From IMG/VR virus record IMGVR_UViG_3300032030_000035, positions 37,610-101,609 of that record: DNA of 64,000 nt; one strand, written 5' to 3'. Under the pieces are notes generated by a model that saw only the letters and a program-made list of their open reading frames with translations, ran no database searches and was not told the DNA's origin. The position numbers and the translations under genes are program-made. The DNA comes from a virus. Its lineage: Duplodnaviria > Caudoviricetes. Numbering within the stretch: the first letter of the stretch is position 1; each line of letters opens with the position of its first letter. Positions 39,703 through 64,000 of this stretch are shown one piece after another.

Positions 39703-40608
39703 TAAAAATTCTCCTTTTTTTAACTCTAATATTATTATAACAAAAATTTTAAAACTTTTCAATAGTTTTTTGGTCAAAAGTTTTGCGGGAAGAGGGTTTT
39801 TTAGGGGAAAGGAGGATAGTGAAAATGTCATAATCGTGTTTGAAAACGAAAAAAATTTTTGGAGCGGGTGTTGTGGAGCAAAACCCATTTTAGCAAATTC
39901 ACCCAGAAAATCCCATAATACTACCCCCACATACCGCAAATCAGAGACCCTATCTTGTCTTTTACACGGGGGAGGGGTAGGAATTAATTCAAAACAGATA
40001 AGGAATCCTCGGTTTGTCAACTCAAGAGACAAACCGAATTTACGTATAATATCACTTTTACGCAAAAATTAGAATGATTTTATCATCACAGAACCAAAGA
40101 AAAAAATCCGAAAAAACACTTTTTTACCTTTTGACATTGATGTCATTTACCAATGGAAAACTGCATTTTTCTCTTGGCGTTTCACATCATCGCAATATGG
40201 TAGAAATCGCAAATCTTTCAAAAAATCCAGGGAAAACGCACGATGGCTACACGCAGCTACACCTATATATTATTCGTCGGTCCGCATCCTACCCGCGCGG
40301 ACCGAATTTTCGCATTATACCACATTTGTCAAATTTTGTCAATAGGAAAATTATACAAAAATATAGCAAAAATCTTCCCGAAATTTATACAGTTTGCCTA
40401 TTGACTTTTTCTTTGCGGCATGGTATAATTGTAGGTTAACGAGGATCCTGCTGCCTTAACTTAATCTTAATGTATCATAACTGAACCAAAATGTCAAGTA
40501 GAAAAAATAAAAAATTTTTTTTTATAAAAAGTATTGACAAGATAAACTTGCAGAGTTATAATGTATTTACAAGGTAAGGAAAAACCAAAACGAAAGGTGG
40601 TAAGCATT

Positions 40609-40896
40609 ATGACAAAGTATTATGAAGCAGAAAGAGTAAATAAAATAACTGGAGAGGTAACAAAGAAAATTGTTTTTCCTCAAGACTATGATATGTTTTA
40701 TCGGGATGAAATGTCATTCCTTAATAATAATGACAACTTCACAACTGTTGTTTACATGATAACAAGTGAAGATGAAAAGATTCTTATAACAAGACTTAAC
40801 AAGTCTGTAAGACTTAATGCAGAACACAATACAGAAAATATAATATATGTAAAACTCACAACATCAATAGAAAGAAGAGCAATAAAAAATTGGTAA
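40609..40896 (+). CDS. Hypothetical early protein
   Basis: TTGACA/TATAAT promoter and GAAAGGTGG RBS before MTKYY. Confidence 0.7.
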   Translation: MTKYYEAERVNKITGEVTKKIVFPQDYDMFYRDEMSFLNNNDNFTTVVYMITSEDEKILITRLNKSVRLNAEHNTENIIYVKLTTSIERRAIKNW

Positions 40897-40966
40897 AAAG
40901 TATTGACAATTTAACTTGTAAATACTATAATGTATTTACAAGTTAAGGAAAGGAAAGGTAATAAAT

Positions 40967-41170
40967 ATGAATTACTTAACAATCAACAATTGGGAGTACA
41001 GTTTAAACAGTTTGGAGTATGGATGCTTAATCGAATACTTTAAAAACCATAAGTGTTCAGATATCATTTATCAGGCAGTAGAAAAATGGTTTGATGAAAA
41101 GGGTATTGATACACTTGAAACAGTAGTTGATGATAATGGAAATATTATCTATCAACAATCTGAAGAGTAA
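40967..41170 (+). CDS. Hypothetical early protein
   Basis: Own promoter and RBS. Confidence 0.7.
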   Translation: MNYLTINNWEYSLNSLEYGCLIEYFKNHKCSDIIYQAVEKWFDEKGIDTLETVVDDNGNIIYQQSEE

Positions 41171-41267
41171 AACAAAAAAAAATGAAACTTTTTTTAAAAA
41201 AGGTGTTGACAAAACAAAAGGTATATGGTAATATATAATTATCAAAGGAAAGGTAAGGTAAAAAGAT

Positions 41268-41387
41268 ATGAAAAGAGTTAGAGTAGAGTTCTGGTGTGAA
41301 GCAATAGAAATTGCAAAAAAGGCTATTGATGCAGTCATCTACGAAGATAGTTACATAGGTTACATAGTAGAGTATGTAGCCATCTAA
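41268..41387 (+). CDS. 39-aa hypothetical protein (not in track)
   Basis: MKRVRVEFWCEAIE...; promoter and AAGGTAAGG RBS. Confidence 0.6.
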   Translation: MKRVRVEFWCEAIEIAKKAIDAVIYEDSYIGYIVEYVAI

Positions 41388-41637
41388 TGCGGCAGGAGCG
41401 GTACGCGGAAACGTGTATCGCTCGGCGCGTTTGCACTTGGGACGCGCCGTTCTATCAGTAGTACCATATCCCACGAATTTTGTCAATAGTAAAAATGCAC
41501 AATAATATTTGTAAAATGCTCCTAAAATTTGTGCATATTACCCTATTGACAAAGATGGCGGCAAGGGGTATAATTAAAGGATGGGTATTATCGGCGGGCC
41601 GCTAGCCAGCGTGCGTTTCGACGCGGCCCGTCCTTCA

Positions 41638-41922
41638 GAACCCAGTGTTTATGCGGGTTTCCGGGCTTCGAAAAGCCTTATTCTATGCGGGTTTCGGGGC
41701 TCCCGAATTGAAACCCTTGTATTTACTGGGCTCGCGGGGCGTCTCGAAACCCGCGCCAGACAAGGGTTTTCAGAAACCCAGTAACCATGCGGCTTTGCGG
41801 GGTGCCCCGAAACGCAGTACTGGCGCGGGTTTTGGCGCGAGCCCTTTATTTATGCGGGTTTCAAAACCCACGCCCAGCAAGGGTTTGCGGGGTGGTCGAA
41901 AAACCTTATTTTATGCGGGTTT
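41638..41922. repeat. Nine AAACCC-N11-GGGTTT palindromic boxes
   Basis: Starts at 41638, 41672, 41711, 41747, 41774, 41810, 41839, 41864 and 41900; the spacer is always 11 bp. Confidence 0.9.
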
Positions 41923-41964
41923 TGAGCGAAAATATCATTTTTGATATATTTTTAAAAAAGGAAA

Positions 41965-42345
41965 AAGTGGCGAAAATATATCATAAATGATATATTGTAT
42001 CAAATATAAAAAATGATTAAGTGGCGAAAATATATCATAAATGATATATTGTATCAAATATAAAAAATGATTAAGTGGCGAAAATATATCATAAATGATA
42101 TATTTTAAAAAATGAAACCGTACGGAAATATATCATAAATGATATATTGTATCAAATATAATTTGGCGCAATTATATTGAATTAAATATAATTTGATACA
42201 ACTATATTGAATTAAATATAATTTGATACAATATAGTTTAACTCAATTATATTGAATAAAATATAATTTGTTATTTTTCACAAAAATTTTTTAAAAATTT
42301 CGTGAAAAGTGACGAAAATTAAAAAATATATCATAAATGATATAA
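41965..42345. repeat. AT-rich tandem and palindromic repeats
   Basis: 54-bp direct repeats at 41965/42019/42073; five ATATATCATAAATGATATA palindromes; 30-bp tandem TATTGAATTAAATATAATTTGATACAA. Confidence 0.9.
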
Positions 42346-42482
42346 CCGCACAAAAATAAAAAATTGCGTTTCTTCTATATATATTTTAAAAAAATTTTTT
42401 TGCATTTTAAAATTTTTTTTTATTCTTTTTTTGATATATTTTTATTTTTCAAAAACAAAAAAGTATTTTTTAACCCTTCTCA

Positions 42483-42587
42483 AAACCCAGGTAAATCAAG
42501 GGATCTGAGGCATCGACCGCTTGAAACCCTTGATCTGCTTGGGTTCCAAAGTTTTTTCGGCTTGAAACCCTTGTGGTTATTGGGTTT
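42483..42587. repeat. Three further AAACCC-N11-GGG(T/A)T(T/C) boxes
   Basis: Starts at 42483, 42524 and 42565. Confidence 0.85.
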
Positions 42588-42780
42588 GAAAATTTTTAAA
42601 AAAAAATTAAAAAAAGTTGTTGACAACCTCAAGGGTATCTGTTACTATAGAATCAAGCCGAGGGGGTAAGGCAAACAACCCCAAACAAAAAAAAATAAAA
42701 AACTACTTGACAAGTAAAATCAAAGTGATATAATCATAAGTGTCAAGTACAAAAACCAAAAGGAAGCGAGGTAAAAAGGT

Positions 42781-42969
42781 ATGGAAGAAAAAAATTTAGT
42801 AGTAGAAATTGAAGAGGTGGCATATGAGGTTATGAAATTACAGGAGCGTTGTCATGACCTTATGCACAAAGTTTATGAGTCTGATGACTCATACAGCGAC
42901 GAGACAGAAGCAAAACTCGTAGATATAGAGCGTCTTATGAATGCCCTTGCAATGCTCAAAAACCTTTAA
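42781..42969 (+). CDS. Small acidic helical protein
   Basis: Promoter TTGACA..TATAAT and GAGGT RBS. Confidence 0.7.
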   Translation: MEEKNLVVEIEEVAYEVMKLQERCHDLMHKVYESDDSYSDETEAKLVDIERLMNALAMLKNL

Positions 42970-43026
42970 GAACACACAAACGGGGGCTATAAGCCCCCAC
43001 CAACTAGGAAAAGGTAGGTAATTATT

Positions 43027-43278
43027 ATGAGAAACGAAGAGAAGATTATCCGCGATACAAGAAAAATGTGCGATGACGCCAGAGATTTAGCATCTGAGGT
43101 AAGCAGTTTAAGAATGTGCATTGAAGATATGCTTTGTGAGTATGGTATGCTGAAAAGAGAATATGCAGAGTTTTCCCCTAATGACTTTAATGAAGAAGTT
43201 GTTAGAGAAGAGGATCTCGCAATTTTACAAGACCTTGAAAACTTATATAACTTTATGGAAACATTAGAGAATGTCTAA
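43027..43278 (+). CDS. Small acidic helical protein
   Basis: RBS AAGGTAGG; 83 aa. Confidence 0.7.
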   Translation: MRNEEKIIRDTRKMCDDARDLASEVSSLRMCIEDMLCEYGMLKREYAEFSPNDFNEEVVREEDLAILQDLENLYNFMETLENV

Positions 43279-43338
43279 ACCACAACGCGAGGGGCGATAA
43301 GCCCCTTGCCCCAAACAAGAGAGGATAAAGGTGATAAT

Positions 43339-43587
43339 ATGATGAAATTAAGACTTACAAAGATGAAAGAAATGGCTTTTAACGATTTTAAAGAGTGGTT
43401 AGAGGAAGAAGGAGTTGAGTATCTTGCCACACCCGATAACGATATAATCCTTAACTTTGAAGATATGCGTATTGAGCAGATATACAATGACGAGGTACGC
43501 ATTTATCTGAATAAGGATAATGATTATAAAATCTTTGAACTTGCTATTGACTATGACTGCACAGAAATTAAGATTTTTTGGGCTTAG
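43339..43587 (+). CDS. Hypothetical protein (paralogue of 43634)
   Basis: AAGGTG RBS before MMKLRL; shares LE..GV.Y...DC..I.I with the next gene. Confidence 0.65.
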   Translation: MMKLRLTKMKEMAFNDFKEWLEEEGVEYLATPDNDIILNFEDMRIEQIYNDEVRIYLNKDNDYKIFELAIDYDCTEIKIFWA

Positions 43588-43633
43588 GGGATAACCCCTA
43601 AGCCACCAATAAAAATAAAAGGAGATTAAGATT

Positions 43634-43921
43634 ATGACAACAACAATTATTTTAACTTTTAATGAAAGATTTTATAACGGCGACGACACATTTGAAAATG
43701 AGGTATATACCTGGATTATTGAGACATTAGAGAAATGGGGTGTGAAATATGAAGTAGATAAAAATATAATAAAAATCGACGCTACTTCCAAAAAAATCTT
43801 TACTAATGCCGAGGGTGGTGTGGTTATATTCTTTTCGAATCGTCATTTTTATAAACATCTTGATTTCAACCCCAATGACTGTTGCGCAAAAATAGAAATC
43901 AAACATGGCAAGGATTTTTAA
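43634..43921 (+). CDS. Hypothetical protein (paralogue of 43339)
   Basis: AAGGAG RBS. Confidence 0.7.
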   Translation: MTTTIILTFNERFYNGDDTFENEVYTWIIETLEKWGVKYEVDKNIIKIDATSKKIFTNAEGGVVIFFSNRHFYKHLDFNPNDCCAKIEIKHGKDF

Positions 43922-44010
43922 TCCTTGTCATGCTAAACAGAGTATTTAAATGTAACGGCTTAGGGGATAATCCCTAAGCCACCAACTAAACGATAAAGGA
44001 GATAAAAATT

Positions 44011-44190
44011 ATGAGATTTTATATACAACTTAATGGACAGATTAAAAATGCACAAAAGATAACTAAACAGATAATGACTAACGCCGATACAGACCATAAT
44101 AAAAACGATTTAGAGCAAATATATGACTTATTAGAGGCGGCAAGGCAGATATCCGCAAAAACAATAAAGAATAAATTTACTACAAATTAA
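44011..44190 (+). CDS. 59-aa hypothetical protein (not in track)
   Basis: MRFYIQLNGQ...; AAGGAG RBS. Confidence 0.6.
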   Translation: MRFYIQLNGQIKNAQKITKQIMTNADTDHNKNDLEQIYDLLEAARQISAKTIKNKFTTN

Positions 44191-44204
44191 GAGGAGATAA
44201 AAAA

Positions 44205-44297
44205 ATGTTTTGTTATATAATCATTACAGTTATGGCAGTCGCTCCCGCGTATCTAATAGAAAAAAGTATAAAAACATTATATGAAAAAATAGCATAA
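44205..44297 (+). CDS. 30-aa hydrophobic peptide
   Basis: MFCYIIITVMAVAPAYLIEK...; GAGGAG RBS. Confidence 0.5.
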   Translation: MFCYIIITVMAVAPAYLIEKSIKTLYEKIA

Positions 44298-44873
44298 ATA
44301 AACTCATAAAAACAAGGTTAAAAAAAATAAACCTTGTTTTTATTTTTAGTTTTCTATAGTCTCGAATCCGTATAGCCCCAAATAACGATACTTCTAGCTT
44401 TTTTTAACAGAAAATTTAGCTTAACCGCATAGCAGTAAAATCCCGAAATTATAGCGATTAAAATACAATACAAAAGAAATAAAGTAATAATACCCCTAAA
44501 AAAGAAACTTACACCCCAAATAAGAATAGCAATTACAAATAAAATATATATGCCCCTAAATAATTAATATGTTAAAATATATAAATTATATACTTTAATA
44601 GCTTTTAAGTCATAAATAAAATATATATACCCCAAATAATTAACATATTAAAAATTTTGCCGGCGCGTTTCCACCCGCTCAATTTCAGAAACGCGGCGTA
44701 TTTCGCATTATACCACGCCCCGAATAAAATGTCAATAGTAAAATTATACAAAGAATATAGCAATTTTATCCCGAAATTTTGTGCATTTTTTCTATTGAAT
44801 TTTAGATACCCCTAATGTATAATGGTTTTACAAGGTAAGGAAAACATACATAGCGGAAAGGTAGGTATCAGAT

Positions 44874-44996
44874 ATGGAATATTTAATGAGCGAGGAACTT
44901 TGCGAGATGGTATTTTATGGAGAGCTGACCATTGACGAGGCTAATGACTTGGTAATAGCATTTACCCCCGAAACAAATAACAATAAGCAGGAGTAA
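44874..44996 (+). CDS. 40-aa acidic peptide
   Basis: MEYLMSEELCEM...; promoter and GAAAGGTAGG RBS. Confidence 0.6.
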   Translation: MEYLMSEELCEMVFYGELTIDEANDLVIAFTPETNNNKQE

Positions 44997-45291
44997 CACC
45001 TCCTGCTACCCCTTTGAATAGAGAATACCCCCAAATAATATATCATAATCTAATCTCCACTTCGAGGGGTGAGTTTTTATAACTCACCCCTCAAAAATTG
45101 CCGCGCCGTGATGGGTTGCCACGGCGCGAGTTTCGCATTATACCCACCCCTAAATAATTTGTCAATAGGCAATTTGCACAAAAAACTACACAAGCTGATC
45201 CCGATATTTGTATAACTTTTTTCTAAAAAGGTGTTGACTTTCTATATAGATATGTTATACTTATATTATCAAAGAAAGAGAGGTAACTAAT

Positions 45292-45522
45292 ATGAATAAT
45301 GAAAAGTTTTGGGATAATATCGGATATGTAATAATGGCACTTTTGCTTATAGGTCAAGTCACTGTTGGCTGGTTATTCATGGTAGGTCAGGGTGCATATT
45401 TACTCGGTAATATCATAAATGTTATCCGTGACTATAGGTTAAACAGACCTCGTGCAGATAAAGTAAAAAATATTTGCTTTACTGCAATAACAGTAGGACT
45501 TATAATTTTATATATTTTTTAA
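45292..45522 (+). CDS. Small membrane protein
   Basis: Three hydrophobic segments; promoter and RBS. Confidence 0.7.
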   Translation: MNNEKFWDNIGYVIMALLLIGQVTVGWLFMVGQGAYLLGNIINVIRDYRLNRPRADKVKNICFTAITVGLIILYIF

Positions 45523-45600
45523 AAAAGTCCTTGACAAATGAAAAAATTTTTATTATAATAAATATATAAGATAAACAAAAGAAAGGTTAGGTACAAAACT

Positions 45601-45816
45601 ATGAGACAGTTAATTTGGGTTAACGCAGACGGAACAGAATCAAAGACATACGTTAAGGGAGCGACTACTAAATTGGTAAATCTCCCCGAGGATAACGGCA
45701 AGTCAAAACTCCTTTTCAAACTTCTCCATCAGCACTACGCAGAGGTTGGCGCAAAGGTGGTTGAAGAACTCAAGAACGGCACTTACAAGGCAGAAAATTA
45801 CGCTTTATATATGTAG
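45601..45816 (+). CDS. Hypothetical protein
   Basis: Promoter and RBS. Confidence 0.7.
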   Translation: MRQLIWVNADGTESKTYVKGATTKLVNLPEDNGKSKLLFKLLHQHYAEVGAKVVEELKNGTYKAENYALYM

Positions 45817-46079
45817 GCGGCAAGGGGTTTAAAACCCCTGCCCGCAAAATAATCTTACCTCCTCCCTATACCTTAAGGCACCCTATTTGCAAGGGTGCCT
45901 TACTTTTTGGGCGTGTCGTCATGGGGCGCGACGACACGAAATTACCATTATACCATACCCTGAATATTTTGTCAATAATAAAAGTGTACAAAAATTCAGC
46001 CCTTTCACTCCCGATATTTGTGCAACTTTTTTACATTTACCTATTGACTTATTCTGTAGTTATGGTATACTTGTATTAT

Positions 46080-46362
46080 CAAAGAGATGAGGAATAAGGA
46101 CCGAGCCTACAGGGTGGGCGAGGATTGCGGCGACCAAGTCCTGGGGGTGTCACCGCACTCGCGAAACTAACAGAGATACCCATTAAATCGGTGGTGCCTA
46201 TCACGAGGCAGTTTCTCCTAAAAGATATCGTGACAGTGACCCTTAACTTTTCCACCACTAAGGCAATGGAAAATGACCTATGTTGTGCTAACGAGCAAGG
46301 TCGGGCAGAAAATTGCATACCGGTAGCAACGGGAGAGGGGGTTTTAATCCCTCTCCTTTTTC
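46080..46362 (+). ncRNA. Candidate structured ncRNA (~280 nt)
   Basis: Promoter TTGACT..TATACT, no RBS-led ORF, GC-rich with several stems, ends at terminator GGAGAGGG/CCCTCTCC-T-run. Confidence 0.5.
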
Positions 46363-46593
46363 TTTTGAGCGTCGCGTCAACTCAAGAGACGCGACGTATT
46401 TTCAATTATGTTACGTATAACATATTTTTGTCAATCAGTAATTTGCACAAAAATGCAACAGGAAAAATCCCGATATTTGTGCATATTTTTTTTAAAAAAT
46501 TTTTCTAAAAAGTGTTGACATACACCCTATAAAATGGTAGTATATATATGTAAGGAAGAGTTAACAACCAAAACGGAAAGGTAGGTAACAGTT

Positions 46594-46902
46594 ATGATAA
46601 ACATTAGAACACTTAGAAACATTAAAAACAACGGTGGCTTAACACTTAAAAATGGCAAGGCTATCACATATAAAACAGGATGGCAGGTTGCTACAGAGGG
46701 CGTACAGACAACCGATATCAACGAAGTCCGTGGACTTATTAAGAAATATAACGGTAACTGCGGACTGTGGCTTGAAAATGGTATATGGTATGTAGATAAA
46801 AGCCATAGGGTAAATACAAAAAAGGAAGCGCTCCGAATCGGCAGAGAGTGTAATCAGATATCTGTTCTAAAATGGTCTAATATGTCTCTTGCCTACTGCT
46901 AA
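46594..46902 (+). CDS. Hypothetical phage protein
   Basis: 102 aa; promoter and RBS; GGLT..GWQVA..GLW..YVD..EA..G..NQ motif pattern. Confidence 0.7.
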   Translation: MINIRTLRNIKNNGGLTLKNGKAITYKTGWQVATEGVQTTDINEVRGLIKKYNGNCGLWLENGIWYVDKSHRVNTKKEALRIGRECNQISVLKWSNMSLAYC

Positions 46903-47010
46903 AAAGTAGGCAAGAAAAAATAAAAAAAATTTTTAAAAAATGCTTGACAAAATAATCGGTATATGGTAATATATAATCATAAGGAAAACAAAGAAAGGTT
47001 GGTAAGAAAT

Positions 47011-47154
47011 ATGTTTATAGTTAAAGGTTTTAAAAATGGCGTTGTAGAATCAATTCACTGCTTTGGAATGTCCGAAGCATATAGAGCATATCATAAGTTG
47101 ATTAACTCAGGGTATACCGGGATCAAAATTTCTGACTCCAATATACTCGTTTAA
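47011..47154 (+). CDS. Hypothetical protein
   Basis: RBS before MFIVK. Confidence 0.6.
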   Translation: MFIVKGFKNGVVESIHCFGMSEAYRAYHKLINSGYTGIKISDSNILV

Positions 47155-47500
47155 CCTCCTACCTTACCTACGGGGCACCAAATTGGTGCCCTCTTTTGTT
47201 TTGGCCGGTCAGCGATGGGTCGCCGCTGACCGTATTTTTAATTATATCACCCTTTGCGATTTTTGTCAATAGGAAAATTGCACAAAATTTTTAACAATTC
47301 CGTCCTAAAATTCTACATATTTTTTCTTGCTGATCTTGGTATAGTTTTGTCAATAGTAAAAATGTACAAAAATTTACAGTAAAAAACTTTATCTTTGTAC
47401 AATTTTCTTTAAATTTCCCCTTGAAATCCATATTTGCTTTTGTTATAATGTATTTACAAGGTAAGGAAAACAATTTAGTTATGAAAGGTAGGTGCTTATT

Positions 47501-47650
47501 ATGTGGTATGTTATGGTTGATTATGGTTGTGGTGATGTTAGATGCGTCGGCGAGTACGACTCTTGCAATGACGCTCTTGAGCGTTCCGAAATGTTCGAGG
47601 ACGCCTGGGTTTGCTCCGATGAGGATGACGAGCCCGGTAGCAGAGAGTAA
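47501..47650 (+). CDS. 49-aa acidic Cys-containing peptide (not in track)
   Basis: MWYVMVDYGCGDVRC...; GAAAGGTAGG RBS; terminator follows. Confidence 0.65.
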   Translation: MWYVMVDYGCGDVRCVGEYDSCNDALERSEMFEDAWVCSDEDDEPGSRE

Positions 47651-47891
47651 AAAAGAAAGACTCCGAAAGGAGTCTTTTTTCTTTGGGCGTGGCGTCAACA
47701 AAAAAGACGCCACGTATTTAGCGTTATACCATGCTCCGAACATTTTGTCAATAGTAAATATGCACAAAAATAATCAGCGGAAGATCCTAAAATTTGTGCA
47801 TCTTTTTCGTTTCTACCTCTTGCAAACTTTTAAAATTTATGTTATTATATCTATACAAGGTAAGGAAAAACATTAAAGCGAGGTATTTAAT

Positions 47892-48116
47892 ATGGCATAC
47901 TACAGATTTAACAACATTATCATTTCAAGAAACGATTTAATTTCTATTGTCTGCACTGAAATTTTTGATAATGGCAGACGCGATGTACTCACAAAAGAGT
48001 TACAGAAAATTAAAACACCCGAGTTACTCAAGCGTAAAGTACAGGCTCGTGCGCACAGAATAGCATTAAAGCTCGGTCTTGATGTTGAGTATATAGGACA
48101 AGGAAGAGAGGTGTAA
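47892..48116 (+). CDS. Hypothetical protein
   Basis: Promoter and GAGGT RBS. Confidence 0.7.
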   Translation: MAYYRFNNIIISRNDLISIVCTEIFDNGRRDVLTKELQKIKTPELLKRKVQARAHRIALKLGLDVEYIGQGREV

Positions 48117-48118
48117 TT

Positions 48119-48271
48119 ATGGGAGATTTATTTTTAGCAATACAAGAGAAAGGGTATAATCCAGAGTTAGCGATATATACACCCGAACCGAACAACGATC
48201 GATATATCATAGTTGCTATCCGTGGTCGGTACGTCGGAAAATATGATACTTTTAAGAGAGAATGGGCTTGA
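48119..48271 (+). CDS. 50-aa hypothetical protein (not in track)
   Basis: MGDLFLAIQEKGY...; GAGGTG RBS; its stop overlaps the next TTGACA. Confidence 0.6.
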   Translation: MGDLFLAIQEKGYNPELAIYTPEPNNDRYIIVAIRGRYVGKYDTFKREWA

Positions 48272-48321
48272 CATTCTCTCTTGAATGTGGTAAGATATAA
48301 TCATCAAAAGAAAGGTAGGTA

Positions 48322-48516
48322 ATGATTATGAGAACACTTTGTTATGCACTTGATTGGGAAAATACGGGAGTTTGTCTTGCACTGACAGTGCTTGAAAGCC
48401 TTTTCCCTTGTTTCGTATCTTATAACGATATCGATGAAGATACATTCGAGGTATCTATCACATGTCGCCAGGAAGATGCGGCGGCTATCGAGAGAAAGTT
48501 GGCGGCTCATATGTAA
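48322..48516 (+). CDS. Hypothetical protein
   Basis: Promoter and RBS. Confidence 0.65.
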   Translation: MIMRTLCYALDWENTGVCLALTVLESLFPCFVSYNDIDEDTFEVSITCRQEDAAAIERKLAAHM

Positions 48517-48752
48517 GCCGCCATCTCTCCAAGGCTTTGAGCGTCGCGTAATCTACCCGCCACGCGACGTATTTTGCGATTATACCATATTCGGGAAAAT
48601 TTGTCAATAGGCAATTTATACAAAATTTTTAACATAATAATCCCGAAATTTGTGCATATTTTTTCTATAAAAATGTTGACATATTTTCTCTATGTGGTAT
48701 ACTAATAATGTAAGGAAGATAAACAACCAAATCGGAAAGGTAGGTAACAGCT

Positions 48753-49025
48753 ATGTTAATAATGTCAGATGTAGCAACAACAGAGAGAGAAACAAGAGAG
48801 GAAACTATTGAGGAAAGAGAGTATCAGGTTCACGATGCCGTAGATAGCATCGAGTACGACCTCATCGACTTAAAGGAAAATATAGAAATTCTCTTAGATA
48901 ATTTTGGCGACTATATGGAAGATATGACCGAAGAAGAGGAAGATAACTTCTGTGCAGATATCTACGAGAAGATCACATTCCTTGAAGAAATGCAGGAACT
49001 CCTCGCAAAAAGACCAATCAGATAG
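48753..49025 (+). CDS. Highly acidic small protein
   Basis: About one third Asp/Glu; promoter and RBS. Confidence 0.7.
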   Translation: MLIMSDVATTERETREETIEEREYQVHDAVDSIEYDLIDLKENIEILLDNFGDYMEDMTEEEEDNFCADIYEKITFLEEMQELLAKRPIR

Positions 49026-49091
49026 TTACAAAATAATAGAGGCGGTGGCAAGGCACACGGGCCGCCGCCAAGAAAGGTAGAGGTAAAAGAT

Positions 49092-49283
49092 ATGATGAAA
49101 AAATTTATAATAAGAGTCTATACAAATAATTTAGAGGTATATAGGTATAACATTTACGCTCTAAACTATACAAACGCAAAGCGAGAAGCACTTGCAAAAT
49201 ACTTGAATAACCACTCTGGAGCCTCCATTTTTATGATTATAGCTGACAGTGTTGATATTGTCGCAGAGGACTACCTCACTTAA
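49092..49283 (+). CDS. Hypothetical protein
   Basis: GAGGT RBS. Confidence 0.6.
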   Translation: MMKKFIIRVYTNNLEVYRYNIYALNYTNAKREALAKYLNNHSGASIFMIIADSVDIVAEDYLT

Positions 49284-49453
49284 AAGGTGTCGCCAATAGC
49301 TTTGGCGGCACGTGATTTGCTGACACGTGCCGCATTTTTTGTCAAGAGGTAAATTGCATAAAATTATAACTGAAAATTTGGTTATTATTACCTATTGATT
49401 ATTCCTAAAATATCATTTATAATGGTATTATCAAAGAAAGAGAGGTAAGTAAA

Positions 49454-49864
49454 ATGTTAAGAGTATTTAAAAGTTTTTATGAGATTATATGGTCAGATGG
49501 AGAAAAAGAAGAGTTATGCTATGATATTAACACTCGTGCTTTACCTATTTTAAGTGAAACAAATCTTGATAATGAAATGTGGAATCTTGAAAATTTTGCA
49601 AATGCTTATGACTTTTTCAATAAACATCCTTATTTTTATGGCTATTGTTCTATGCGTTCATTTTTTAATAAACCTATTATTTATATGCCGGAAGGAGTAT
49701 GTATAACAACAAAAAATTTCATACCTTTTAAGGTTATCAAATCTTATGAGGATGTAACTGATAAGGTATCTATTAAAGATTTAGCCAATGATTTATCGGC
49801 TGATGATTTCTGTAGATTCTTAAAAGATAGGCAGATAAATTTCAATTTAGAGTTGACAAGATAA
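49454..49864 (+). CDS. Hypothetical protein
   Basis: 136 aa; promoter and RBS. Confidence 0.7.
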   Translation: MLRVFKSFYEIIWSDGEKEELCYDINTRALPILSETNLDNEMWNLENFANAYDFFNKHPYFYGYCSMRSFFNKPIIYMPEGVCITTKNFIPFKVIKSYEDVTDKVSIKDLANDLSADDFCRFLKDRQINFNLELTR

Positions 49865-49912
49865 AAATTTTATTATATAATAATATTATCAAAAGAAAGA
49901 GAGGTAACAAAA

Positions 49913-50113: not shown

Positions 50114-50336
50114 ACAAGTAAGCGACGCTCATTAAGTTGGGCGTCGCGTTAGCACTTGTAACGCGACGAATTTTCAATTATACCACACCTTGCAAAATTT
50201 GTCAATAGGCAAAATGCACAAAAATATAACTATGGTGATCCCGAAATTTGTGCAACTTTTTTTCTAAAACCCCTTGCAAAGTTTCAAAATCTATGGTATT
50301 ATATCTTTACAAGATAAGGAAAGCGAGGTATTAAAT

Positions 50337-50546: not shown

Positions 50547-50556
50547 GGTGGTAACT

Positions 50557-50736: not shown

Positions 50737-50794
50737 CAAAAACTGCGGCAAGGTGTATAATATAACTACAGTTAAGGAAAGGTAGGTAATAGTA

Positions 50795-51145: not shown

Positions 51146-51147
51146 AG

Positions 51148-51354: not shown

Positions 51355-51358
51355 AAAT

Positions 51359-51871: not shown

Positions 51872-52090
51872 GAAACCTCTTCCCGCAAGGTAAGGTCACC
51901 AGCTCGTGGCCTGCCGCCGCGAGCTGAATTTACCATTATGCCATACTCCATATAATTTTGTCAAGGGGTAATTTTATACAAAAAATTTTTTATAACTTTC
52001 CCGATATTTGTGCAACATTTTCGTTGACTTTTTACTATTGTGGGGTTATAATATATTTACAAGTTAAGAAAAGAAAGTGAGGTAATTATT

Positions 52091-52468: not shown

Positions 52469-52779
52469 ATTTATAAAACGGCTCGGCATTTTTACTCGCC
52501 GAGCCGTGCGCATTTCACACGGCTCGTATTTTTGTCAAGATGGCAATTTGTATAAAAATAAAACTGATATTTTGTGCAATATTCCCTATTGCAATTATCC
52601 CATAATGTGTTATACTATAATTACAGAAAGGGAAAGAAATGCAAGTGGATAACCTTTCAAAGAGAAAAATGGCACTGATAATCATAAAAGTAGGGGTTGT
52701 TAAGACTTTAGCAATTTTGAAAAAAGATTATTACCCATTGGAAACTTGCCCGACAATTTTGAAAGAGAGGAAATAAAAA

Positions 52780-52977: not shown

Positions 52978-52995
52978 AGAAAGGAAATAAGAAAA

Positions 52996-53169: not shown

Positions 53170-53396
53170 TTAAAAGAGGGTTTAACCCTCTTTTTTTTGT
53201 TCGGCGGCTCGCTTGCATTCGAAGCGAGCCGCAATTTCTATTATGCCACCAGTCACATATTTTGTCAATGGTAAATTTCAACAAAAATAATGCAAGAAAA
53301 ATCCTAAAATTTATATAACTTTTTTCACCATACCTCTTGCAATTTTCAACGTATATGGTATAATTTAATTACAATAAAAGAAAGGAAATAAAAAGT

Positions 53397-53861
53397 ATGG
53401 CAGATAAAATGTTGGTATTTGATATGGATGGCACTATCGCAGACCTTTACGGCGTAGATAATTGGTTAACAGATTTAAGGTCTTACAATCCTCGCCCTTA
53501 TGAAAATGCAAAGCCTATGTACAATATGGATAAACTTAATGAGGTATTAAACACTCTAAAGGGTATGGGTTGGAAAGTAGTTGTAACCTCTTGGTTGGCA
53601 AAACAGAGCCATCCTACCTATGATAATGCCGTAAGAAAAGCGAAACTTGATTGGCTTGAAAAATACAAGTTTCCTTATGACGAGATACACCTTGTAAAAT
53701 ATGGTACAACAAAAGCAAACTGCACTCGTCATCATGGCGGTTACCAGGTTTTGATTGATGACAACGAGAAAGTAAGAAATGGATGGCGGTTAGGTCATAC
53801 CATAGATGCAAACAAAGATATTCTTGAAGATTTAAGGGCTCTCATGGGGGCTACTGCTTAA
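53397..53861 (+). CDS. HAD-superfamily 5'(3')-nucleotidase-like hydrolase
   Basis: VFDMDGTIAD motif I, VVTS, K..WL, LIDDN motif IV. Confidence 0.8.
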   Translation: MADKMLVFDMDGTIADLYGVDNWLTDLRSYNPRPYENAKPMYNMDKLNEVLNTLKGMGWKVVVTSWLAKQSHPTYDNAVRKAKLDWLEKYKFPYDEIHLVKYGTTKANCTRHHGGYQVLIDDNEKVRNGWRLGHTIDANKDILEDLRALMGATA

Positions 53862-54062
53862 AAGAGGAGTTTAAACACTCCTCTTTTTTCTTTGGTCAGG
53901 TCGTGGTTTGCCGCCACGACCTGCATTTTTGTCAAGTAGTAATATTCGATAAATTTTATAACTGAATTTTAGTGATATTTACTACTTGCGTTTATCCCAT
54001 AATTTGCTATAATTATACTTGTAAGGAACAAGGAAATAACAAAGGAAAGGTTGGTAAAAGAA

Positions 54063-55668: not shown

Positions 55669-55842
55669 AAACATGGCACGACTAAGGCTAAAACCTTTGG
55701 TCGTGCCATTTACTGTCGAAATGGCACGAATTTGCTGTCAAGATGTATTTTTACTAATTTTATTTCTCAATTTTTGGTAACATTTACCTATTGTAATTTT
55801 CCCGATATTTGTTATACTAATATTATCAAAGAGGTAAATAAT

Positions 55843-56730: not shown

Positions 56731-56802
56731 GTGCCCGTAGCTTAGTGGTAAAGCACCCGACTTTTAATCGGGTTACCGGGAGTTCAAATCTCCTCGGGCA
56801 CA
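56731..56802 (+). tRNA. tRNA-Lys(UUU)
   Basis: GTGCCCG/CGGGCAC acceptor, GCTT/AAGC D-stem, CCCGA-CTTTTAA-TCGGG anticodon arm, GGGAG-TTCAAAT-CTCCT T-arm; CCA not encoded. Confidence 0.92.
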
Positions 56803-57187
56803 TCAGCGGTTTTAGCAATGGGTTTCCGCAAACAAAAAAATCTCACGATAGTTTTTAGGGTGTGACACATTTTTTCTATCGTTATCAAAAAATGTTAGCG
56901 AGATGGTTTTTTCTGATTTTTTCCGATAAAATAAATCAGACCATTATTAGACGGACGCGTCGAAAAAAGCCCTCTGACGAGAGGGCATTTTTTTTTGTCG
57001 GCTCGACATGGGTCGCGTCGAGCCGAATTTCTAATTATATCACCTTCCACAAAATTTGTCAATAGGCAATTCCACCAAAAACGCCTTCCCGCAACTCCCA
57101 AAATTTGTGCAATATTACTACTTGTTTTTCTTATTCTATCTGTTATAATATATATATCAGTTAAGAAAAGAAAGGAAAGTAATAAAA

Positions 57188-58653: not shown

Positions 58654-58822
58654 AAAGAGCCGTTGGAGTATTCCGACGGCTCGTTCGCTACTCAAACGAG
58701 CCGTATTTTCATTTATTGTATAATTTGTATAATTTTAAACTGTAAATTTGGTCATTATTACCACTTGTATTTATCCTATAATATGGTATACTTATATTAT
58801 CAAAGAAAGAGAGTAAACAGTT

Positions 58823-59023: not shown

Positions 59024-59109
59024 TAAGAGGTGGCGGAAAGGCAAACGCCGGATGTGGCTCGTTCTCTGAAAAGAGTGTAGAATTGCAGGTTCGAATCCTG
59101 CCCTCTTAA
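59024..59109 (+). ncRNA. tRNA-like RNA with aberrant anticodon arm
   Basis: TAAGAGG/CCTCTTA acceptor, TGGCGGAAAGGCAAACGC D-arm, GCAGG-TTCGAAT-CCTGC T-arm; own promoter and terminator. Confidence 0.7.
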
Positions 59110-59406: not shown

Positions 59407-59579
59407 GCTGCGGCAAGGCACTTTGCTCGACCGCGGCGTCATTTAACGCAACGCCGCGGATTTTTTGTCAAGATGTATTTTCACTAAATTTTAATTTCCA
59501 TTTTTGTATAATACTACCTATTGTTTTTGTCCCGAAATAGTGGTATTATTAGTATATCAAAGAAAGAGAGGTAACAGTT

Positions 59580-60874: not shown

Positions 60875-61110
60875 AAAAATAAGCCGCTCAAGTATTGACT
60901 TGGACGGCTCGTTTGCACTTGAAACGAGCCGAACTTTCCATTATACCACCTGCCGCAAAATTTGTCAAGAGAAAAAGTGAAAAAATTTTCACAAAATTTA
61001 ATCCTAAAATTTGTGCAATTTTTTACTCAAAACTACTTGCAATTATTTTAAATAAGAGTATAATTATAATTGTAAGGAAGATAATACACAACAGAAAAGA
61101 GGTAACTGTT

Positions 61111-61632: not shown

Positions 61633-61700
61633 ATCTTCCTTAAGGGGTTGACAATAGCAAGTTTAAGTGGTATAATAGTATCAGAAAGGAGATAAAAAGT

Positions 61701-62039: not shown

Positions 62040-62045
62040 TAAAAT

Positions 62046-62237
62046 ATGATTAAAATTGTAAGATATGGTTGTCCTATTCTATATTGTACTTGTAATAACT
62101 GTGGGTCGAAAATAAGTTATAATAAATATGATACAGAATATGAGCATGAAATGACAGAATACTATCTAAAACAATATGAATATTTAGAGTGCCCTGTATG
62201 TGCAAATAAAATTATTGTAGGAGAGGAGAATAAATAA
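62046..62237 (+). CDS. Zn-ribbon protein
   Basis: CNNCG...CPVC. Confidence 0.7.
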   Translation: MIKIVRYGCPILYCTCNNCGSKISYNKYDTEYEHEMTEYYLKQYEYLECPVCANKIIVGEENK

Positions 62238-62239
62238 AT

Positions 62240-62464
62240 ATGAGTGATATTTTAATTTTAAAAGCAAACATTTTAGGTGGTATGAATGAATATATCCATG
62301 AAATCGGAGATGAAGATGTCCTTAATGATTGGTATGCATATGGCATCCCCGATGGATGCACAGAAGAAATGCTTATGGACTTCGCAGGAGATGAAAGAAT
62401 ATTCATGAATATTGTTGATGTATTCAACTCAATATTAGTTGATATCAATGGTGTTAATTATTAA
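62240..62464 (+). CDS. Hypothetical protein (paralogue of 50930-51145)
   Basis: MSD..I...IL..MN..I...GDED....W...GIPD.C. Confidence 0.7.
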   Translation: MSDILILKANILGGMNEYIHEIGDEDVLNDWYAYGIPDGCTEEMLMDFAGDERIFMNIVDVFNSILVDINGVNY

Positions 62465-62985
62465 AGGGTTAGATAATAGCCCTTTTTTATTTTGTGACGG
62501 GAACGGGGAATGGAGGGGTCTGAGAAAATTAAATCTATATTTAATTTCCTCCGACGGGTCGCGATGAACCGCCGCGACCCGAAATTTCCATTATACCACT
62601 TTCCGCATATTTTGTCAAGTGAAAATTTGCACAAAAATTTACACATTTTAATCCTAAAATTATACTTTACTTTTGCTAAAATTTTTGATATAATTATTAT
62701 AGATGGAAAGGAAACAAGTCGGTAACGGCTTTAAGTAATGGGGTTTCCGTGGCTATATGTGAGGGTTTAGGTAGCCATCAAAAAAAATAAAAAATTTTTA
62801 TTGACAAACAAAAAATCTTATGTTATAATAAATATGTAAGATAAAGAAAGAGGAAAAGTCAAGTACCTCTTAAAAAATTTAAAAAAAAATAAAAAAAACA
62901 CTTGACAAACTTAATAAAGAATGTTATAATAATAACATAAAGAACAACAAACAAACAAATTTTTTAAGAAAGGTGGTCATTAACT

Positions 62986-63348
62986 ATGGCAGAGAAGAAA
63001 GTAACTAAGGTAGAGAAATTTAACGCAATTGCAAAGGTACTTGCTGATGCAGGTGTCAGCACACTCTCTATCCGCAACGAAGAGGTCAATGTAGCAGAGT
63101 TCATCGGTAACGAGGTTGCTCTTATCGAGAAGAAAGCATCAAAGGCTACAACCAAGAGAGTAGACAATTCAGAGGGTATTGCAAAGGTACGCGAGGTACT
63201 CGCAGACGGTAAGGCTTACACCCCTACTGAAATCCAGGCTCTCACTGGTCTTGTCAATACGCAGAAAGTCGCTTCAGTCCTCAAGGCTATGGGCGATAGC
63301 GTAAAGAGAGAGACAAAGGGCAAGAAAGTAACTTACAAACTTGCCTAA
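62986..63348 (+). CDS. Winged-helix DNA-binding protein
   Basis: YTPTEIQ...NTQKVASVLK...VKRETKGKKVTYKL wHTH-like; high-expression codon style; tandem promoters upstream. Confidence 0.6.
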   Translation: MAEKKVTKVEKFNAIAKVLADAGVSTLSIRNEEVNVAEFIGNEVALIEKKASKATTKRVDNSEGIAKVREVLADGKAYTPTEIQALTGLVNTQKVASVLKAMGDSVKRETKGKKVTYKLA

Positions 63349-63379
63349 TCGGAAATGGGGCTTTTAATAGCCCCATCCC

Positions 63380-63655
63380 TTAGGGGAAATTGGGTTTCGA
63401 AAGGCTTATCCCGAGTTGCAGACAAAAACTTGCTCCCTATGAAAAGCAGATGAAGTTTTTCCGTTGTGCATTACGATAAATCCCGTAGAAAAAAGGCAGA
63501 TGACGACGTTAGAAATAGGCTGTCCGTATGGTATAACGAGATAATACTACGCTTAAGATTTCCCGTGATACATTCATCTCATAAGGAGATGAAAGAAATC
63601 TCCTAAAAAGCATCCCATTATTACGAGGTCTGCAACTCGTAGGGGTGCTTTTTTT
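63380..63655 (+). ncRNA. Candidate structured RNA
   Basis: No ORF; perfect 12-bp long-range pairing 63412-63423/63628-63639; internal stems; terminator. Confidence 0.45.
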
Positions 63656-64000
63656 GTTTGGTCGGGCAGTTCGCTTCTCAAACTGCCCGAAATTTCCATT
63701 ATATCACATCCCGCAAAATTTGTCAAGAGGAAATTTGCACAAAGATTAAAAAAGTTTTATCCTAAATTTGTTACTTTTTACCTATTGTGTTATTTAAAAA
63801 ATTTTGATATAATCTATATATAAACAAAAGGGAACAAAAAATTTTTTAAACGGGAGTTATAAAAAATTTAAAAAACCCTATTGACAAATTTAAAAAAATT
63901 TGATATAATTATTACATAAGGTTAAGGAAAAACCAAAAAGTTTTAAAAAAAAGTCTTGACAGTTTTCAAAAAATCTGATATAATAAATATATAAGGTTAA

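Follow-up and report, generated by a model that had tools for sequence, protein, structure and literature searches.

The closest known system to the array described here is that of the PeSL (promoter-early stem-loop) cassettes, found in the hyperplastic regions of T4-type phages (Arbiol et al. 2010, PMC2839356; Comeau et al. 2014, PMC4122927). These are dispersed composite units joining an early promoter of host-type consensus to a stem-loop terminator; they stand between small ORFan genes of a variable early region, and where close relatives differ by insertions, deletions or replacements, the breaks fall at these units. The same can be said of the locus studied here, in a stretch of 64,000 nucleotides of a virus of the Caudoviricetes, which we call the window and whose numbering is used throughout. 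From 40 to 64 kb, the window covers the variable early region, that of host takeover, of a large siphovirus-type gut phage with Clostridia-like hosts, a lineage other than that of the PeSLs, and the genes of this region are ORFans. The region is split into about 24 transcription blocks by one repeated composite boundary module: a GC hairpin with a T-run, an optional backward promoter, a TCC box and, usually, a forward early promoter. In some copies from relatives, the stem-loop comes right after the -10 element, as in a described PeSL subclass. Contrary to PeSLs, the hairpin is conserved in structure alone and keeps a fixed 9+9+9 geometry, a perfect-consensus backward promoter is often added, and the TCC box, 70 nt from the hairpin whatever the forward promoter, has no counterpart in the PeSL description (PMC2839356).

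A second comparison comes from synthetic biology. The part of Brophy and Voigt 2016 (PMC4731013) places a constitutive antisense promoter after a unidirectional terminator, and represses the gene in proportion to the strength of that promoter, via polymerase collisions and antisense RNA. In 14 of our 24 modules, likewise, the terminator at the 3' end of a gene has behind it a strong promoter directed back into that gene. However, the module is natural, its backward promoter is optional and begins at a dedicated hairpin's foot, and nothing in the synthetic part corresponds to the TCC box or its spacing rule.

A hairpin conserved in structure

A covariance model trained on 21 window hairpins and run over the whole 101.6-kb contig gives 24 matches, all on the + strand and within 40001-63698 of the window, and zero matches in the remaining 77 kb. 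The complete 165-kb genome of a close relative, G001, likewise has 24 hairpin modules, confined to one region. The initial annotation had proposed 24 bipartite sites of a hairpin and a TCC box: the sites are all recovered, on stronger grounds than claimed, with a box at each of the 24. The 11-nt spacer that it counted in 21 of 24 copies corresponds to the 21 hairpins of 27-nt geometry, read here as effectively 9 bp + 9 nt + 9 bp instead of 8+11+8; the exceptions are a 12-nt spacer at 48542 and two long loops, at 41595-41630 and 44661-44698.

In the covariance alignment, 98.9% of the stem cells are paired, and 55 cells show a double change versus 15.8 in shuffles; 0 of 500 shuffles reach either value, and sliding the partner columns out of register lowers pairing to 21-43%. 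The G001 orthologues differ at 8 of 324 stem positions, 6 of which form three compensated pairs. The stems had been described as variable but complementary: complementarity holds, but they are less free than was thought, with the consensus CG-NNN-CG-Y ... R-CG-NNN-CG and the conserved flanks TTGG and (A/T)ATTT. Predicted folding energies range from -16 to -23 kcal/mol.

GC-rich palindromes placed 3' of genes recall the REP/BIME elements of enterobacteria, which can end or stabilise the upstream mRNA. REPs, however, are conserved in sequence and associated with a RAYT (HUH) transposase, whereas the modules have variable stems and a second motif at a fixed distance, and no Y1 transposase gene was found in the contig or in G001. 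The Rfam model RF03083 (cow-rumen-3) aligns weakly, over its full length, with one module, at 52498-52625 (-), and with the G001 orthologue of that module, mainly through the terminal GC hairpin. Their scores, 29.7 and 26.3 bits, are far under the gathering score of 86.7, no match was obtained for the other 23 window modules, nor any hit in four other related genomes; the modules do not belong to this family.

The strand on which the hairpin acts can be approached through its imperfect pairs. Among 68 distinct stems read on the sense strand, 18 non-Watson-Crick pairs are G.T or T.G versus 5 A.C or C.A (P = 0.011, on 23 events in total); stem positions 1-8 alone give 9 versus 1. Since G.U-type pairs favour the gene-sense strand, the hairpin most likely functions as RNA of that strand. 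This asymmetry, together with the 9-nt loops, speaks against the DNA cruciform suggested earlier.

All copies are followed by a short T-run of 3-5 T. The 9-nt loop is long for a classical intrinsic terminator, and a consensus terminator scan calls just 4 of the GC hairpins + strand terminators. An ordinary short-loop terminator stands immediately upstream in about half of the modules, so that the GC hairpin possibly has another role; in six modules there is no terminator besides it. In 4 of 21 modules, an upstream arm is complementary to the hairpin's own 5' arm (permutation P = 0.0006), and for this reason we take termination as probably modulated.

Promoters and layout of the modules

A near- or full-consensus backward promoter abuts the hairpin in 14 of the 24 window modules; in a non-redundant set of 51 modules the share is about 40%. 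It consists of TTGACA, a spacer of 17-18 nt and TATAAT or CATAAT; 8-9 nt separate the end of the -10 hexamer from the hairpin, and the start is 1-2 nt away from the foot of the hairpin. A scan of 44.5-64 kb finds 13 reverse promoters at 11-12 of 12, ten of them at 12/12, and the fourteenth, at 40342, lies outside the scanned interval. In most modules there is, in addition, a forward early promoter of sigma-A type, at variable distance. The annotated position of the elements, between the terminator of one block and the promoter of the next, is supported by the following layout, all modules being on the + strand.

In a first set of modules we find, in this order, hairpin, reverse promoter, box and forward promoter: module 2 (40278..40429), at 40278-40304, 40342..40314 (-), 40376-40384 (offset 71) and 40401..40429; the irregular module 5 (44661..44823), with a long-loop hairpin at 44661-44698, then 44735..44707, 44769-44777 (offset 70) and 44795..44823; module 6 (45102..45261), at 45102-45128, 45165..45137, 45199-45207 and 45234..45261; module 7 (45912..46071), at 45912-45938, 45975..45947, 46009-46017 and 46044..46071, after an ordinary terminator at 45874-45902; module 8 (46370..46543), at 46370-46396, 46434..46405, 46468-46476 (offset 71) and 46515..46543, after an ordinary terminator at 46331-46357; module 11 (48542..48703), at 48542-48569 with the 12-nt spacer, 48607..48579, 48641-48649 (offset 71) and 48676..48703; module 13 (50142..50302), at 50142-50168, 50205..50177, 50239-50247 and 50274..50302, with an upstream anti-arm at 50122-50131; and module 14 (51900..52052), at 51900-51926 with one T.G pair, 51964..51935, 51999-52007 (offset 72) and 52024..52052.

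The same order is found in module 16 (53205..53364), at 53205-53231, 53268..53240, 53302-53310 and 53337..53364, after a terminator at 53172-53194; module 19 (56999..57149), at 56999-57025, 57062..57034, 57096-57104 and 57122..57149, after a bidirectional terminator at 56969-56986; module 22 (60905..61064), at 60905-60931, 60968..60940, 61002-61010 and 61037..61064; module 23 (62555..62694), at 62555-62581, 62618..62590, 62652-62660 and 62666..62694; and module 24 (63663..63813), at 63663-63689, 63726..63698, 63760-63768 (box TCCTAAATT) and 63785..63813. The contig stops at 64000; in G001 the array extends about 2 kb more. Module 9 (47206..47311) has an ordinary terminator at 47172-47192, a hairpin at 47206-47232, a reverse promoter at 47269..47241 and a box at 47303-47311.

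Module 1 (40010..40115) has a hairpin at 40010-40036 and a degenerate box, TCCGAAAAA, at 40107-40115 (offset 70); strong reverse and forward promoters are absent. Module 3 (41423..41574) has its hairpin at 41423-41449, its box at 41520-41528 (offset 70) and its forward promoter at 41546..41574. The irregular module 4 (41595..41709) combines a 36-nt hairpin at 41595-41630 with the box-like TCCCGAATT at 41701-41709 (offset 70), is without forward promoter, and precedes a block of AAACCC/GGGTTT and AT-rich repeats. In module 10 (47688..47848), a bidirectional terminator at 47656-47677 is followed by the hairpin at 47688-47714, a reverse promoter with a weakened -10, the box at 47785-47793 and the forward promoter at 47820..47848. 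Module 20 (58677..58782) has an anti-arm at 58657-58663, a hairpin at 58677-58703 and the box TCCTATAAT at 58774-58782; in its G001 orthologue a left promoter abuts the hairpin.

In the modules of short type, the box lies within the spacer of the forward promoter. These are module 12 (49306..49423), with its hairpin at 49306-49332, no reverse -10, and its box at 49403-49411 in promoter 49395..49423; module 15 (52500..52616), with an anti-arm at 52478-52487, hairpin at 52500-52526 and box at 52598-52606 in 52589..52616; module 17 (53897..54013), with a terminator at 53860-53887, hairpin at 53897-53923 and box at 53995-54003 in 53986..54013; module 18 (55702..55818), with an anti-arm at about 55671-55680, hairpin at 55702-55728 and box at 55800-55808 in 55791..55818; and module 21 (59432..59549), with its hairpin at 59432-59458 and box at 59530-59538 in 59521..59549.

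The backward promoters lend some weight to the earlier idea of a dispersed RNA gene family, which would now take the form of minus-strand small RNAs with a 5' hairpin, themselves the functional product, acting as antisense regulators of the 3' end of the upstream gene or as decoys. Their start sites fit this idea, as does a bidirectional terminator within 40-75 nt of some of them (47656, 48500, 56969 and the hairpin at 45102 itself). Most copies, however, have no minus-strand terminator, the promoter is present in part of the copies only, G.U-type pairs favour the opposite strand, targets complementary to the loops are not enriched in the genome, and the TCC box, upstream of such an RNA, is left unexplained. 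We consider such a family unlikely.

The distance from hairpin to TCC box

Counting the motif TCCYRAWAT over the genome gives 22 copies on the + strand, of which 19 lie within 40376-62652 of the window, and 3 on the - strand. The box starts about 70 nt (68-72) past the 3' base of the hairpin in 24/24 window modules, including the two irregular hairpins. All 22 standard modules have a box-like site 70-72 nt downstream of the hairpin; full 9/9 matches at that spacing number 17, versus 0.09 expected, but the window copies are homologous to one another, and P values within the genome consequently overstate independence.

Independent support for the spacing rule must thus come from relatives. In G001, with its 24 modules, the offset is again 70 +/- 1. 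In a blind test, a search pattern describing the hairpin only returned 12 viral contigs and six true hairpins in MAG contigs: the box is at 70-71 nt in 18/18 true hairpins from other contigs, and the four chance matches without complementary arms are without box. The anchor of the spacing is the 3' base, also where the hairpin is 36-40 nt long instead of 27. The proposals that hairpin and box form one unit of fixed length, and that this length is independent of the DNA in between, are both borne out, the latter by other viral contigs with unrelated intervening sequence (L091 1611, L153, L154, L162, L170).

Could the spacing be a mere by-product of how the promoters are built? The ancestor of the modules would then be a backward sigma-A promoter with a far-upstream TCC element (about -73) and a start-site hairpin, and copies without backward promoter would be decaying relics, not yet hit by insertions or deletions. 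The strict placement of the backward promoters and their near-perfect or perfect consensus agree with this. So do the homologous stretches common to all module types, among them an A/T tract (offset 25-32, in more than 80% of modules of all types) and a TTGTCAA remnant, together at offset 25-36, and the G002-type modules, which resemble long-type modules of unaltered length whose -10 elements carry point mutations. Given the common descent of all module types, the constant length is possibly inherited in part. Against a by-product stand, besides the unrelated intervening sequences, the 29 of 51 non-redundant modules with no promoter abutting the hairpin, whose boxes score 8-9 out of 9 at the exact offset. 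In the short type, about 24 nt were lost and the ancestral box site decayed, and a replacement box is found at offset 70-71 in new sequence context; in L052 and L050, -10 or -35 remnants have moved by +12 or -22 nt and the offset is still 70-71. We judge this origin of the spacing rather improbable.

The forward promoter is no better anchor. Its position is free: it overlaps the box in some copies and lies up to about 80 nt past it in others (13 to 81 nt from box to forward -10), two units have none, and among + strand consensus promoters without hairpin, 0/22 have a TCC box. The box is coupled to the hairpin rather than to promoters.

A length of 70 nt also evokes replication: one SSB tetramer covers about 65-70 nt, the SSB(65) site size. 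Modules could then be single-stranded DNA signals for priming or helicase loading, a single tetramer over the spacer bringing the box to the exposed hairpin. All copies are on the same strand, and two promoter-less units stand before repeat-rich, origin-like non-coding blocks. Yet the window's origin-like block is missing from G001, the elements are confined to a 24-26-kb early region, exactly at the borders of transcription blocks, the tolerance of +/-1 nt is tighter than SSB wrapping would predict, and the G.U asymmetry indicates RNA. A replication signal is the reading that we find hardest to credit.

Gene blocks and a possible mechanism

Between the window and G001, we count about 12 insertions, deletions or replacements and one swap of neighbouring blocks. 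Among 30 ends of alignment blocks, 12 fall in hairpin modules, which make up 20% of the region (P = 0.011); of the other 18, most coincide with internal promoters or junctions between genes, and the ends within modules spread across the module with no single crossover point. Gene blocks are thus gained, lost and swapped at hairpin modules and at other promoters: the array is cassette-like as first described, but with breaks that are not confined to its elements.

Integron attC sites also separate the genes of a recombination-prone array of small genes, and are more conserved in structure than in sequence. A recombinase of integron or Xer/pdif type would here read the folded hairpin and the TCC box, a pairing that resembles a folded recombination site, and exchange blocks at the 3' base of the hairpin; four window/G001 junctions lie 0-6 nt from such a base (45938, 53233/53237, 55733), and the swap of neighbours is in keeping with such an exchange. 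One RNA-run contig fuses 53346 to 45248, a weak observation for which a circle or a recombinant is possible. However, no Phage_integrase, Resolvase or Y1 HUH transposase (Y1_Tnp) gene was found in the contig or in G001, which leaves the integron-like system first suggested unsupported. There is no intI and there are no R''/L''/L'/R' core sites, each block, in contrast to integron cassettes, is equipped with a promoter of its own, junctions fall at more than one point, and the pairing pattern suggests RNA rather than folded DNA. Site-specific recombination is very unlikely.

We favour a boundary module acting on transcription, an explanation drawn from sequence comparison to which, taken as a whole, we give a little less than an even chance. 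The sense-strand RNA hairpin would act as terminator or insulator and protect the end of the upstream transcript. The backward promoter, if present, would add insulation by head-on interference or roadblock, in the manner of the synthetic part. The TCC box would be the DNA site of one conserved factor, encoded by phage or host, acting over a rigid, AT-rich and probably bent 70-bp spacer on the polymerase or the RNA at the terminator; block borders could then be switched between stop and read-through, as an early-to-delayed-early control. We know of no precedent for a termination point tied to a DNA site at 62-70 bp, and this third step is thus a guess consistent with the geometry. The search for a TCC-binding protein gave no candidate, and the conserved 493-aa gene beside the array has no informative family or structure match. 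Finally, as dispersed repeats, modules and internal promoters would serve as seams for the homologous recombination that shuffles blocks, as with the PeSLs of T4-type phages. The unit as such resembles these known phage cassettes of promoter and stem-loop; what had not been described before is the fixed spacing between hairpin and box.

A covarying hairpin and its strand

The covariance model of the hairpin, R1, matches the contig 24 times, always on the plus strand and between window positions 40001 and 63698, with no match elsewhere in the contig: the initial annotation had counted the same number of palindromic elements. Pairing was tested over a helix of 9 bp in A1, an ungapped alignment of 21 hairpins. 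The complementarity reported for the stems exceeds that of shuffled controls: 98.9% of the cells are paired, and double-sided changes occur in 55 cells versus 15.8 in shuffles, a value reached by 0 of 500 shuffles; sliding the 3' partner by 1-3 columns makes pairing fall to 21-43%. The stems do covary, but they are less free than had been described, since they follow the consensus CG-NNN-CG-Y / R-CG-NNN-CG, in which three central pairs vary. The 9-nt loop is usually closed by a ninth pair, and conservation extends into the flanks, TTGG and (A/T)ATTT; an upstream symmetric partner motif was sought, and conservation there stops at TTGG.

The close relative G001, a complete genome of 165 kb, is ~90-96% identical to the window in the shared parts and carries 24 R1 matches, which share a strand and are confined to 40.4-66.1 kb. 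Between orthologous hairpins of the window and G001, 8 of 324 stem positions have changed, and 6 of these 8 fall within 3 compensated pairs.

Folding energies range from -16 to -23 kcal/mol on either strand, and a first, small count of mismatches gave no strand bias (G.U 3 versus 4). A larger set was gathered through the position of the box only, and is hence blind to the kind of mismatch: its 68 distinct stems contain 18 G.T/T.G versus 5 A.C/C.A (P = 0.011), of which 9 versus 1 are at stem positions 1-8. This excess indicates that G.U is tolerated on the gene-sense strand and not on the other. It argues for a hairpin that acts in sense-strand RNA, and against selection mainly for a cruciform or for an RNA of the minus strand. 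The alternative that the elements form a family of small RNAs read from the minus strand covers part of the data, and is contradicted, among other points, by the G.U bias towards the sense strand.

The stable, covarying hairpin is followed by a short T-run, and a simple terminator scan of the plus strand passes only 4 copies. An upstream arm complementary to the module's own 5' arm exists in 4 of the 21 modules (P = 0.0006), and these four are all modules without an ordinary terminator. Hairpins that exclude one another in this way are a typical sign of regulated termination. Two further readings were rejected: the loops match phage sequences, as antisense or kissing partners would, only at chance level (8-9-mers), and the one Rfam family with a weak hit is RF03083, cow-rumen-3, whose best score is 29.7 bits for a gathering threshold of 86.7, in one module only.

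The assembled contigs of X1, a sheep-gut metatranscriptome, contain 67% of the words of 44600-54000, at an uneven depth of 1-45 along the array. Two of these contigs start on the first base of a hairpin, at 48543 (to 49321) and at 51900 (to 52540), and the end at 52540 lies 14 nt past the next hairpin, just beyond its T-run. This suggests hairpin-bounded RNAs; since contigs reveal neither strand nor true ends, they are not counted as evidence.

A box seventy nucleotides beyond the hairpin

The plus strand of the genome has 22 exact TCCYRAWAT motifs, 19 of which lie within the array; the minus strand has 3. A box or near-box begins 70-72 nt after the 3' base of the hairpin in 24 of 24 cases, and perfect 9/9 matches at this offset number 17 for an expected 0.09, which bears out the fixed distance first reported for every copy. 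The long-type box extends to TCCYRAWATTTGTGCA, and is followed by T-rich sequence.

Copies within one genome are homologous, and the real weight therefore rests on relatives. The hairpin-TCC unit is found in more distant contigs, where a conserved neighbouring protein is 39-55% identical and, in some, TAG is a sense codon. Over ~65 modules the offset varies between 68 and 72 nt, and in nearly all it is 70 or 71. Its anchor is the 3' base of the hairpin: the offset remains 68-70 where the hairpin is 36-40 nt long. A blind test used a pattern of the hairpin and its flanks only to scan public collections. Among viral contigs the box was present in 12 of 12, at 70 nt in 11 and at 71 nt in one; among genome and MAG contigs it stood at 70-71 nt in the 6 matches with complementary arms, and was missing from the 4 chance matches without them. 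The association of hairpin and box is thus genuine, far from random, and common to a phage family.

Both in the window and in relatives, the spacing holds over unrelated intervening DNA, as had been proposed: many modules have a backward promoter there, and others unrelated sequence. The short type of module lacks ~24 nt with respect to the long type, the ancestral position of the box has decayed, and a new box stands at 70-71, within the spacer of the forward promoter. The only further element common to all module types is an A/T tract at offsets 25-32.

The distance from the box to the forward -10 falls in discrete classes, from 13 to 81 nt, without a common helical phase. The box was thus rejected as a class I/II activator site of the forward promoter, the distances of 13-15, 34-35, 48-49, 57-59, 70 and 81 being out of phase; it was also rejected as a general promoter feature, being absent from 22 consensus plus-strand promoters without a hairpin. 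Two units, the one at 41595 in the window and the last of G001, have no forward promoter at all. Pairing of the hairpin 5' flank with the box is no better for cognate than for non-cognate pairs (permutation P = 0.72). Likenesses to CodY, Spo0A, Noc/ParB, dif/Xer half-sites, CIRCE geometry, gyrase sites and DnaA boxes were weighed and set aside, the match being partial or confined to some variants of the box.

One related phage (~3118-3223 of contig L010, ~3341-3446 of L011, and 45427, 47874 and 49551 of L152) has three perfect DnaA-box sequences (TTATCCACA / TGTGGATAA) instead of the TTGTGCA repeats that flank the TCC box. The same phage has convergent consensus promoters on both sides of the hairpin.

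Promoters around the hairpin, and a putative reader

The typical module begins with the upstream stop codon and often an ordinary short-loop terminator, followed by TTGG, the GC hairpin and (A/T)ATTT; then come an opposite-strand promoter, the TCC box, the forward promoter, a ribosome-binding site and a small gene. Predicted forward promoters score 9.5-12.5 in 20 of the 24 modules; the exceptions are modules 1, 4 and 9, where there is no such promoter, and module 20, with only a weak candidate.

The typical backward promoter consists of a perfect TTGACA, a 17-nt spacer, TG and TATAAT, with a -10 that ends 8-9 nt from the hairpin, so that the predicted start is 1-2 nt from the hairpin foot. Such strong promoters are present in 14 of the 24 window modules, and not in the remaining ones; they occur in ~40% of 51 non-redundant modules. 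In another 5 of the 51, a promoter lies on the left and its -10 stops 2-3 nt short of the hairpin; neither kind is present in 29. Abutting promoters are thus frequent accessories, and not part of the core. That the spacing is an architectural by-product of the backward promoter accounts for part of the data, and is contradicted by the modules that keep the offset over intervening sequence of another kind.

Where it exists, this arrangement resembles a terminator and antisense promoter unit, in which a strong promoter, here a predicted one, lies immediately beyond a gene's terminator and fires back into that gene. Synthetic parts of this design have been shown to give repression or insulation through head-on interference (PMC4731013). 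By analogy, the backward promoter should add repression or insulation to a module whose hairpin most likely ends the upstream block and insulates it in RNA.

Three observations, that the box tracks the hairpin and not the promoters, that the distance holds to ±1 nt, and that an A/T tract lies near the midpoint, lead us to infer a conserved factor that binds the box. This putative factor would sit on duplex DNA and act, across a rigid and probably bent spacer, on the polymerase or the RNA at the terminator, and boundaries could thereby be opened or closed together. We know of no precedent for a gap of 60-70 bp between a termination point and a DNA site.

No candidate for the binder was found. 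The neighbouring 493-aa protein (38584-40065, minus strand) is present in all module-bearing relatives, which is uninformative because these relatives are one phage family, and it has no Pfam or PDB match. Its 'sigma factor' label comes from PHROG 5767 (E = 1e-47); it has a short C-terminal zinc motif of the HNH/endonuclease VII kind, and its gene lies two genes upstream of the large terminase. Homologues in G004, G005 and G006, and a second copy in G002, all relatives, contain 3-9 in-frame TAG codons, consistent with the TAG-recoding 'code 15' clade of the gut phage phAss-1; under the standard code, the copy in the window is uninterrupted.

A bolder reading, which we consider unlikely, is that hairpin and box each provide one half of the site recognised by an undescribed, dedicated machine that reads a shape and an exact distance of 70 nt. 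Such a machine would be either a factor that switches all ~24 boundaries at once between termination and read-through, or a nuclease or recombinase guided by structure, which would turn the early region into a programmable cassette array, and the site would be common to a family of large gut/rumen Clostridia phages.

Exchange of gene blocks in the early region

Compared with G001, the array of the window shows about a dozen replacements, insertions and deletions. A block of 3.7 kb (41553-45265), which includes the origin-like block 41640-42400, is missing from G001; two adjacent blocks are swapped; and G001 has a 1-kb cassette inserted between two copies of one module. When five sub-segments per module are mapped separately, switches appear at the junctions between gene and hairpin, hairpin and spacer, spacer and box, and promoter and gene. 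The proposal that rearrangements break at the palindromes is supported in part: 12 of 30 block ends fall inside hairpin modules, which make up 20% of the region (P = 0.011), and four of these 12 are at most 6 nt from a hairpin 3' base, but the remaining 18 lie elsewhere, mostly at internal promoters or gene junctions.

The integron-like cassette system first suggested is not supported. Genes for Phage_integrase (PF00589), Resolvase and Y1 transposase (PF01797) are absent from the contig and from the complete G001, so that the IntI tyrosine recombinase adjacent to integrons is lacking. As had been seen at the outset, the attC core sites RYYYAAC / GTTRRRY are absent too; the stem here is CG-NNN-CG-Y, with flanks TTGG and AATTT. 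Contrary to integron cassettes, which are promoter-less and use a common promoter, nearly every block here has its own consensus promoter. The REP/RAYT pattern combines a conserved palindrome with a Y1 HUH transposase, whereas here the stems vary and PF01797 is missing. A site-specific recombination site would cover part of the data, block ends at modules among them, and is contradicted, among other points, by the same missing genes; a single-strand replication signal likewise covers part of the data, and is contradicted by the G.U bias, among other points.

Dispersed promoter/stem-loop repeats (PeSL) of T4-type phages are a closer parallel: recombination between them shuffles ORFan genes (PMC2839356; PMC4122927). 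The likeness extends to a motif repeated in a variable region of small genes, most without family match (24 copies, in window 40-64 kb only), to a predicted early promoter of host sigma-70-type consensus within the module, and to the indels and replacements at the motifs. The array differs in descent, since this phage, with its siphovirus-type terminase and 2872-aa tape measure protein, is no T4-like myovirus. We therefore file the array as a PeSL-like boundary-module system in a different phage lineage, and not as an integron pattern. The element is a promoter/stem-loop boundary cassette of a new form, with the TCC box as its novel part and a bipartite core of fixed spacing.

In T4-type phages, exchange between nearby PeSLs forms mini-circles. 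The X1 contigs gave a single candidate joint of this sort, in a contig of low depth that joins window 53346 to 45248, with 5 extra letters between them. These are the forward-promoter regions of modules 16 and 6, and the joint could be a recombinant genome or an inter-promoter circle.

The phage and its family

The contig of 101,609 bp, of which the window is the final 64 kb, is rated 66% complete. Late genes, including that of the tape measure protein, occupy the minus strand in the left 40 kb of the window; an ORF of 2651 aa next to the tape measure gene (6570-14525, minus strand) has no Pfam or PHROG match. The large terminase shares 41-44% identity with its counterparts in Geobacillus virus E3 and Enterococcus phage H1, and 41% with that of phAss-1; it is nearest to the terminases of large Firmicutes phages of the siphovirus type. 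Beyond 40 kb, as far as the contig end, the genes are all small and all on the plus strand, most lack a family match, and host-type promoters (TTGACA-17-TATAAT) are very common. Taken together, these features place the phage in a family of large siphovirus-type phages with Firmicutes or Clostridia hosts in animal guts, and window 40-64 kb is its early, variable module. A megablast search for cultured-phage relatives with the module returned none, and a distant search gave just one match of 27 nt, to phAss-1, a phage with two weak copies of the module; the phAss-1 paper makes no mention of promoters, terminators or repeats.

Other features of this region deserve a record. Two tRNA genes lie within the array, at 56731-56802 and 59024-59109 (Rfam tRNA, 75.4 and 38.7 bits). 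The block 41640-42400 has GC-rich AAACCC/GGGTTT boxes followed by an AT-rich direct repeat of ~54 bp in four copies, every copy with a palindrome inside it; the block is origin-like in appearance, and several YCGAAA motifs there resemble the TCC box. Beyond the last module, a non-coding stretch (window 63800-64000; 8380-9560 of contig L139, which is 66.4-67.6 kb of G001) holds several gene-less consensus promoters, GC-rich repeats and a long (AT)n/(TA)n run.

Large uncultured Clostridia phages are abundant in the gut, and their early gene control is, to our knowledge, almost unstudied. With ~24 copies per genome and many related contigs, the module probably has a central part in organising both early expression and the exchange of gene blocks. 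Across diverged phages, a 9-base box stays at 70 ± 1 nt from a hairpin of which only the shape is conserved, and this implies a physical reader. Finding this reader could reveal a new coupling of termination, antisense promoters and downstream initiation, and could yield compact insulator parts for Gram-positive engineering. Should the spacing be an architectural by-product, the array would still stand as a clear Gram-positive equivalent of the shuffling cassettes known as PeSLs.
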